Shown here piece by piece: positions 6,995 to 7,453 of a stretch of 64,000 bases of DNA. The stretch is from the sequence record MN022785.1, one strand, 5' to 3'. Numbering within the stretch: the first letter of the stretch is position 1; every line of letters begins with the position of its first letter. The notes beneath the pieces were generated by a model, which worked only from the letters and a program-made list of their open reading frames with translations, did no database searches and had not been told where the DNA came from. The position numbers and the translations under genes are program-made. The stretch comes from Escherichia phage VEc20.

Positions 6995-7453
6995 TTATTT
7001 TAAATCATCTGCCCAATCGAGTTTAAGAGGCTCTTTGTATTCACGGTCAAGTACAACCGGAATTTGTACATCACCGCTAAATGATAAGGGCCCAACATTA
7101 TAAGACAATGTTATATGCGGTGTGTAATCATCAAAATCGTGTGTAGCACCTAGTGCCCGCGCATACATGTGTCGACAGCGCAGATATTCAGAATCTAGCA
7201 CAAGTACAAGAGTCGATCCATCTTGTGTTTTCCACACTTCTAAATGTCCAGAAGAAGCTACTTCAAAACTTCCACTCGATGGAACATATGGAACATTTAC
7301 TCTTGAATAACATATAGTCGAATGAATTTTTTCTCTAGGAACTGGATTAGGAACACGTAAAGAGCGCTGGAGTTCTTCCAGCGCGTCAAGTGTTAATTCT
7401 GAAAACTTAGCTGCTACATAAAGACCCGTTGAAAAGTCTTTAAATTCCATCAT
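6995..7453 (-). CDS. 57B: 2H phosphoesterase (T4 57B-like; Acb1-type cyclic-oligonucleotide phosphodiesterase, anti-CBASS)
   Basis: 152 aa as in T4 57B; two H-x-T/S motifs (IHSTI and PHITLS); sits between ip locus and 57A. Confidence 0.7.

Follow-up and report, generated by a model that had tools for sequence, protein, structure and literature searches.

Gene 57B of Escherichia phage VEc20 is very probably acb1, an anti-CBASS gene at the edge of a hypervariable internal-protein locus

The open reading frame (ORF) at 6995..7453 on the minus strand of Escherichia phage VEc20 raises two questions. The first is whether its product degrades the cyclic oligonucleotide signals of CBASS immunity, as the original prediction from the sequence had it, or acts on RNA, as the labels of its database relatives suggest. 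The second is whether the gene belongs to an anti-defence island next to the tRNA genes. We addressed both within the window, a stretch of 64,000 nucleotides from sequence record MN022785.1, whose positions are used throughout.

A single ORF occupies 6995..7453 on the minus strand, and both the ORF listing and its translation give an ATG start and 152 codons followed by a stop. A second in-frame ATG directly after the first could be the true start; the product would then have 151 aa, the length given in the old T4 record X03016, with the numbering shifted by one and nothing else altered. A tblastn search of the product against 50,697 phage records returned X03016 as its top match, at the gene annotated 'put. 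57B protein', with 152/152 aa identical (100%) to the T4 protein (gp57B, NP_049750.1). The DNA of the two genes differs at 8 of 459 positions, and all eight changes are synonymous, which fits purifying selection on an unchanged Acb1 protein. Across the 50,697 records, the protein was found in 1,471, of which 445 have at least 99% identity. The product also matches the Pfam profile PF23474, 'Anti-CBASS protein Acb1', across profile positions 1-144 of 144 (E=2.7e-60, 202.7 bits), so that it passes the curated threshold of 27 bits at full length. Its best match among solved structures is Acb1 from Erwinia phage FBB1, crystallised without ligand (7T26) and with 3'3'-cGAMP (7T27), to which residues 9-149 align with E=4.2e-62 and 68% identity over the whole crystallised domain; the more distant structure chains 9Q2G and 9Q2Y, which are also named Acb1, were matched as well. 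An AlphaFold2 single-sequence model of the product reached a pLDDT of 37.9 and a pTM of 0.30, and the predicted compact 2H phosphoesterase fold is assigned here through homology to 7T26 and 7T27, not through that model. Substantive evidence against Acb1 identity was looked for and none was found. We put the probability that the ORF is acb1 (T4 gene 57B) of a Tequatrovirus close to T4, predicted to encode an anti-CBASS enzyme, at about 0.97. The enzyme is already known, and the identification is an ordinary one that brings no new knowledge of it.

The residues that define Acb1 activity are all present. Two H-x-[TS] motifs, and no more, occur in the translation: KIH44ST46IC and TPH113IT115LS. 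The first, H44-S45-T46 (CAT TCG ACT), is encoded at 7316..7324 and the second, H113-I114-T115 (CAT ATA ACA), at 7109..7117, both on the minus strand, and their His and Thr residues are those identified as catalytic in the study of T4 Acb1 (PMC9117128). Y12, W74, F107 and W147, which stack on the bases of the ligand, and E141, which reads adenine, are likewise found in the protein as they are in T4, as is the C-terminal lid of residues 145-152 (LDWADDLK; 6998..7021, minus strand), which carries W147 and is identical to that of T4. The numbering in the text of that study appears to follow the T4 sequence, because W74 and F107 are T4 residues and FBB1 Acb1 has F and Y at these positions. FBB1 Acb1 also has one extra residue after position 80, raising its later numbering by one; it shares the HxT/HxT tetrad, Y12, the C-terminal Trp and the Glu with the VEc20 protein, and the tetrad of the latter aligns to the same residues in 7T26.

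We extended this comparison with an alignment of the VEc20 protein, FBB1 Acb1 and homologues from seven other phages (a Krischvirus, a Tulanevirus, a Lazarusvirus, a Vibrio phage, a Pseudotevenvirus, a Slopekvirus and the 440-kb Salicola phage SCTP-2), at 29-68% identity. Only 13 columns are invariant across the nine sequences, down to 29% identity, and H44, T46, H113, T115 and Y12 are among them, while E141 is kept in seven of the nine. The two His-x-Thr pairs are therefore equivalent in position to the Acb1 tetrad and invariant in distant homologues. These results uphold the original prediction for the gene itself, which had named a 2H phosphoesterase of the Acb1 type from the motifs IHSTI and PHITLS, with the same length and position as T4 57B: both motifs were located at H44-S-T46 and H113-I-T115, identity to the T4 protein is complete, PF23474 and the tetrad positions agree, and the gene lies after 57A and before an internal-protein gene and the tRNA cluster, as it does in the T4 record. 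Its further statement that T4 57B is Acb1 and degrades CBASS signals agrees with published work (Hobbs et al. 2022, PMC9117128).

Two of the homologues differ in the lid region. The Acb1 homologues of Cronobacter phage JC03 (Pseudotevenvirus) and Klebsiella phage KMI9 (Slopekvirus), each at 2459-3082 of the locus examined, are 207 aa long and keep the HxT/HxT tetrad; they have no lid tryptophan at the position of W147, and a C-terminal extension of ~55 aa replaces the short lid. These proteins may represent a variant form that gates its substrate differently or has gained a further function.

The biochemistry and genetics of the identical T4 protein are well documented. T4 57B was named Acb1 after a 3'3'-cGAMP-degrading activity was purified from T4-infected cells by activity-guided fractionation (Hobbs et al. 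2022, PMC9117128). The enzyme cleaves 3'3'-cGAMP, cUA, cAAA and cAAG, and leaves cGG, 3'2'-cGAMP and cA4 uncleaved (PMC9117128). The fold seen in the FBB1 structures is that of a compact 2H phosphoesterase. The ligand is covered by the C-terminal lid, residues 145-152, with its bases stacked against Y12, W74, F107 and W147, its adenine N6 in contact with E141, and its scissile phosphate above the tetrad H44, T46, H113 and T115 (PMC9117128). No metal is needed for the reaction, in which the ligand is cut 3' of adenosine and a cyclic phosphate forms on the way to GpAp, and the H44A/H113A protein is inactive (PMC9117128). T4 Δacb1 grows normally in the absence of CBASS and shows a >300-fold defect on CBASS hosts (PMC9117128), and in a transposon screen 57B/acb1 was dispensable on K-12 and required on a CBASS host (bioRxiv 10.1101/2025.11.20.689424).

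By extension from T4, the VEc20 protein would bind cyclic di- and trinucleotide messengers made by host CBASS cyclases during infection, a step established for the identical T4 protein. As known for that protein, the lid would then shut over the ligand while Y12, W74, F107 and W147 stack on its bases and E141 reads the adenine N6. With the tetrad H44/T46/H113/T115 in place, the adenosine 2'-OH would attack the 3'-5' bond, and the resulting 2',3'-cyclic phosphate intermediate would be turned into a linear product carrying a 3'-phosphate, for example GpAp, again as in T4. Destruction of the signal would leave the CBASS effector inactive and allow the phage to escape abortive infection.

The product could instead be a LigT-like 2'-5' RNA ligase, or an RNA 2',3'-cyclic phosphodiesterase, with a role in the repair of RNA or tRNA. 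The names of its relatives point that way. The product matches PHROG 755 (E=5e-68), a family labelled 'RNA ligase'; its close relatives in GenBank are mostly labelled 'RNA ligase' or 'hypothetical protein', although one of them, PP355090, labels the gene 'anti-CBASS protein Acb1'; and many phage records name the acb1 homologue 'RNA ligase' or 'putative RNA 2',3'-cyclic phosphodiesterase'. The gene also lies ~1.7 kb from tRNA genes, and its product has a weak Pfam match to 2_5_RNA_ligase2 (E=0.11). However, that match, to PF13563, is partial (residues 81-123) and scores 13 bits against a cutoff of 27, whereas the Acb1 profile scores 202.7 bits. The 'RNA ligase' names are older than 2022 and are a legacy of 2H superfamily similarity only. 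Acb1 shares with the LigT proteins of PF13563 the two H-x-T/S motifs, the 2H fold and a metal-independent chemistry via a 2',3'-cyclic phosphate, but its substrate is a cyclic oligonucleotide signal and not RNA ends, and the lid and stacking aromatics are specific to Acb1. The pocket seen in the structure is closed and of a size to take cyclic di- and trinucleotides, and the identical T4 protein was discovered by its activity on 3'3'-cGAMP, with a deletion phenotype that appears with CBASS and not without it (PMC9117128). An RNA ligase or LigT function, which falls below the Pfam threshold and is contradicted by published activity and phenotype, was rejected as highly improbable. Acb1 may have a side activity on RNA 2',3'-cyclic ends.

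A second alternative accepts the enzyme and disputes its purpose: the main target in natural hosts would be cA3, whether made by type III CRISPR-Cas or by another signalling system based on cA3, or acb1 would be a net liability through tripping guards that use decoy nucleotides (Panoptes). Acb1 cleaves cAAA, and Hobbs et al. raise the possibility of type III CRISPR evasion (PMC9117128); type II Panoptes restricts Acb1-encoding Tevenvirinae (Bas35-37), which escape via acb1 mutations (PMC13577387); and over-expression of acb1 reduces colony formation with type I Panoptes (PMC12657218). We consider this alternative scarcely credible as a replacement for the anti-CBASS role, given that it extends the same enzymatic mechanism and is not another function, that the CBASS phenotype of acb1 has been shown directly (PMC9117128; bioRxiv 10.1101/2025.11.20.689424), that type I Panoptes defence is unchanged by T4 Δacb1 (PMC12657218), and that acb1 is intact here and under purifying selection (8/8 changes synonymous), as well as being kept at that same identity of at least 99% in the 445 records.

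The gene lies in a conserved block. Immediately upstream lies gene 57A (7450..7680, minus strand), which encodes a tail fibre assembly helper of 76 aa (Pfam PF17594 GP57, E=7.6e-50; phrog_1002). The TGA stop of 57A overlaps the ATG of acb1 in an ATGA at 7450-7453, and this overlap suggests translational coupling of the two genes. The genes upstream of acb1 on the coding strand are 4, 2, 3, 1 (dNMP kinase) and 57A, the same neighbours in the same order as in T4, and beyond them gene 53 and gene 5 lie on the opposite strand. Among the Straboviridae loci examined, those of T4 and of the Acinetobacter, Vibrio, Aeromonas, Krischvirus, Pseudotevenvirus and Slopekvirus phages share the order 3-1-57A-57B; two of them, the Acinetobacter and Aeromonas loci, also have an annotated gene 2 (DNA end protector) upstream. 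The neighbourhood of acb1 in the Salicola phage differs. Differences from the T4 locus include the eight synonymous changes in acb1 and the length of the 57A product, which has 80 aa in the T4 record. From gene 3 to 57B, the collinear alignment is 12 nt shorter here than in T4.

Expression of acb1 can be considered in the light of a match to the T4 late-promoter consensus, TATAAATA, at 8036..8043 on the minus strand. This site lies inside gene 1, upstream of 57A-acb1, and maps by collinear alignment to PL1 of the T4 record (X03016 775-783). Its position fits the middle/late class to which 57B/acb1 was assigned in an expression atlas (bioRxiv 10.64898/2026.03.30.715471). The late promoter in gene 1, whose function in VEc20 we infer, probably drives acb1 in part, with transcription that is middle/late.

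Downstream of acb1, the 73-nt intergenic region that separates it from the next gene (6922..6994, minus strand) is 100% identical to T4. It holds a stem-loop and an early-promoter-like site, TTTACA-17-TACTAT, at the place where PE2 is annotated in the T4 record. The first 21 nt of this spacer, TTTCACAAAGTTGTTTACATA, bear the promoter and recur as an exact repeat, at 6974-6994 and 6643-6663, so that one copy stands before each of two internal-protein genes. Farther off in the window, a copy of TTTCACAAAGTTGTTTACATA with three mismatches is found at 2923-2943. The promoter-like sites at 6981..6953 and 6650..6622 are counted only as positional equivalents of annotated T4 promoters; a generic scan for sigma-70 promoters and terminators across 5300-9200 gave 14 sites against 15.3 expected from shuffled sequence, with no excess.

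The two genes that follow are ip5 and ip6, both on the minus strand and both encoding putative internal head proteins. The product of ip5 (6664..6921) is 85 aa long and matches phrog_3499, 'internal head protein' (E=3.9e-49), and that of ip6 (6351..6584) is 77 aa long and matches phrog_8111, 'internal virion protein' (E=4e-51); the genes carry the names ip5 and ip6 in phage fFiEco06. The length of 77 aa for ip6 counts from the second ATG, where the listed ORF starts at 6596 and gives 81 aa; the phrog_8111 alignment begins at residue 5. The N terminus of ip5, MKTFKEFAAKTTITE, resembles a capsid-targeting sequence by comparison with T4 IpI, and that of ip6 is MKTFKEFIAE, so that both begin MKTFKEF as T4 IpI does. 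Each product combines a predicted N-terminal capsid-targeting sequence ending in Glu with a match to an internal-protein family.

Collinear homology with T4 (96.7%) is unbroken through acb1, stops at 6887, 35 nt into the ip5 ORF, and resumes at 6330. Across 6331-6886 on the minus strand, ip5 and then ip6 replace T4 ipI, with the break falling within the capsid-targeting sequence and the resumption before trna.4. The locus otherwise resembles the ipI locus of T-even phages, with small MKT(F/Y)xEF genes directly downstream of 57B, each after a repeated promoter-bearing sequence. Polymorphism of this hypervariable ipI locus was reportedly described by Repoila et al. in 1994 (cited in PMC12373910). 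The TTTCACAAAGTTGTTTACATA repeats look like recombination anchors for exchange of the cassette.

These observations bear on whether acb1 is part of an anti-defence island. The part of the original prediction that described the surroundings stands: an internal-protein cassette is adjacent, consisting of ip5 and ip6, and 11 tRNA genes are nearby. The label itself stands in part. In its favour, the neighbours of acb1 belong to the class of internal head proteins whose T4 members Ip1, Ip2 and Ip3 are packaged in the capsid, enter the host by injection and inhibit GmrSD type IV restriction enzymes, a different one for each protein (PMC12373910), and ip5 and ip6 are suspected to be injected counter-defence proteins for that reason. 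Against it, acb1 sits in the conserved 3-1-57A-57B block and not in the variable cassette, and three ORFs, trna.4, trna.3 and trna.2, lie between the ip genes and the tRNAs. Describing the stretch from acb1 to the tRNAs as an anti-defence island is plausible but unproven. That acb1 is itself part of a mobile or exchangeable cassette was rejected, as T4 homology continues through the gene and is first lost 35 nt inside the ip gene; acb1 is at the edge of the hypervariable region, not within a mobile island.

A literature search on the Ip5 and Ip6 proteins of phages returned nothing on either. We tentatively suggest, as a possibility that we hold to be somewhat doubtful, that ip5, ip6 and perhaps the ORF at 3100..3561 encode injected inhibitors of host defences, most plausibly of GmrSD-type type IV restriction enzymes, in cassettes swapped via the repeated promoter and the capsid-targeting sequences.

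The tRNA cluster comprises 11 genes at 4304..5321 on the minus strand, called by ARAGORN: Gln, Leu, Gly, Pro, Ser, Thr, Met(CAT), Tyr, Asn, His and Arg. Ten of these were confirmed at the Rfam gathering score, and an Rfam search of the window found no family besides tRNAs. Compared with the T4 record X03016, the cluster has Tyr, Asn and His in addition. ORF5 of X03016, located between two tRNA subclusters there, is absent from the cluster here, and T4 homology ends at ~4804; the position of ORF5 is one that we take to be that of T4 segB. Between tRNA-His and tRNA-Asn, a spacer of 114 nt (4460-4573) carries no tRNA or Rfam call. Past the cluster, 3724-3935 on the minus strand shares 87.6% identity with two stable T4 RNAs of X03016, 'species 2' and 'species 1', for which there is no Rfam family, and a tRNA-like GGTTCGAATCC motif lies near 3690-3700. 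An ORF of 116 aa at 3935..4285 (phrog_3355) separates this stretch from tRNA-Arg, where T4 has no such ORF.

Other features of the neighbourhood were noted on the far side of the tRNA cluster. The ORF at 3100-3561 on the minus strand encodes 153 aa and begins MKTYAQFLMTE|A, similar to the capsid-targeting sequence of internal proteins. A stem-loop with a T-run and the late-promoter consensus TATAAATA at 3590-3597 stand directly before the ORF, and it matches phrog_2280 (E=5e-52), being annotated 'hypothetical' in relatives. The ORF may encode an unrecognised internal (injected) protein. Farther along, 58-1300 on the minus strand holds three tandem overlapping ORFs of 162, 120 and 137 aa with hydrophobic segments and similar C-terminal ends (..ECRKLK, ..DCRKIK and ..ESRCKSQN), and the next ORF, 1248..1856, has KECREY near its end. 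The three ORFs look like a small family of paralogous membrane proteins in a region corresponding to the T4 e.x genes.

For annotation, acb1 (anti-CBASS protein 1) is the fitting name for the gene at 6995..7453, in place of 'RNA ligase' or 'hypothetical protein'. The identification predicts that the phage resists CBASS systems whose signals are 3'-5' cyclic di- and trinucleotides containing adenine, and that it is sensitive to guards that sense the loss of cA3, such as type II Panoptes. Both predictions bear on the prediction of host range and on the choice of phages for therapy. If ip5 and ip6 do encode inhibitors of host defences, the region running from acb1 to the tRNAs would act against several defences at once, with a gene content that follows host range.
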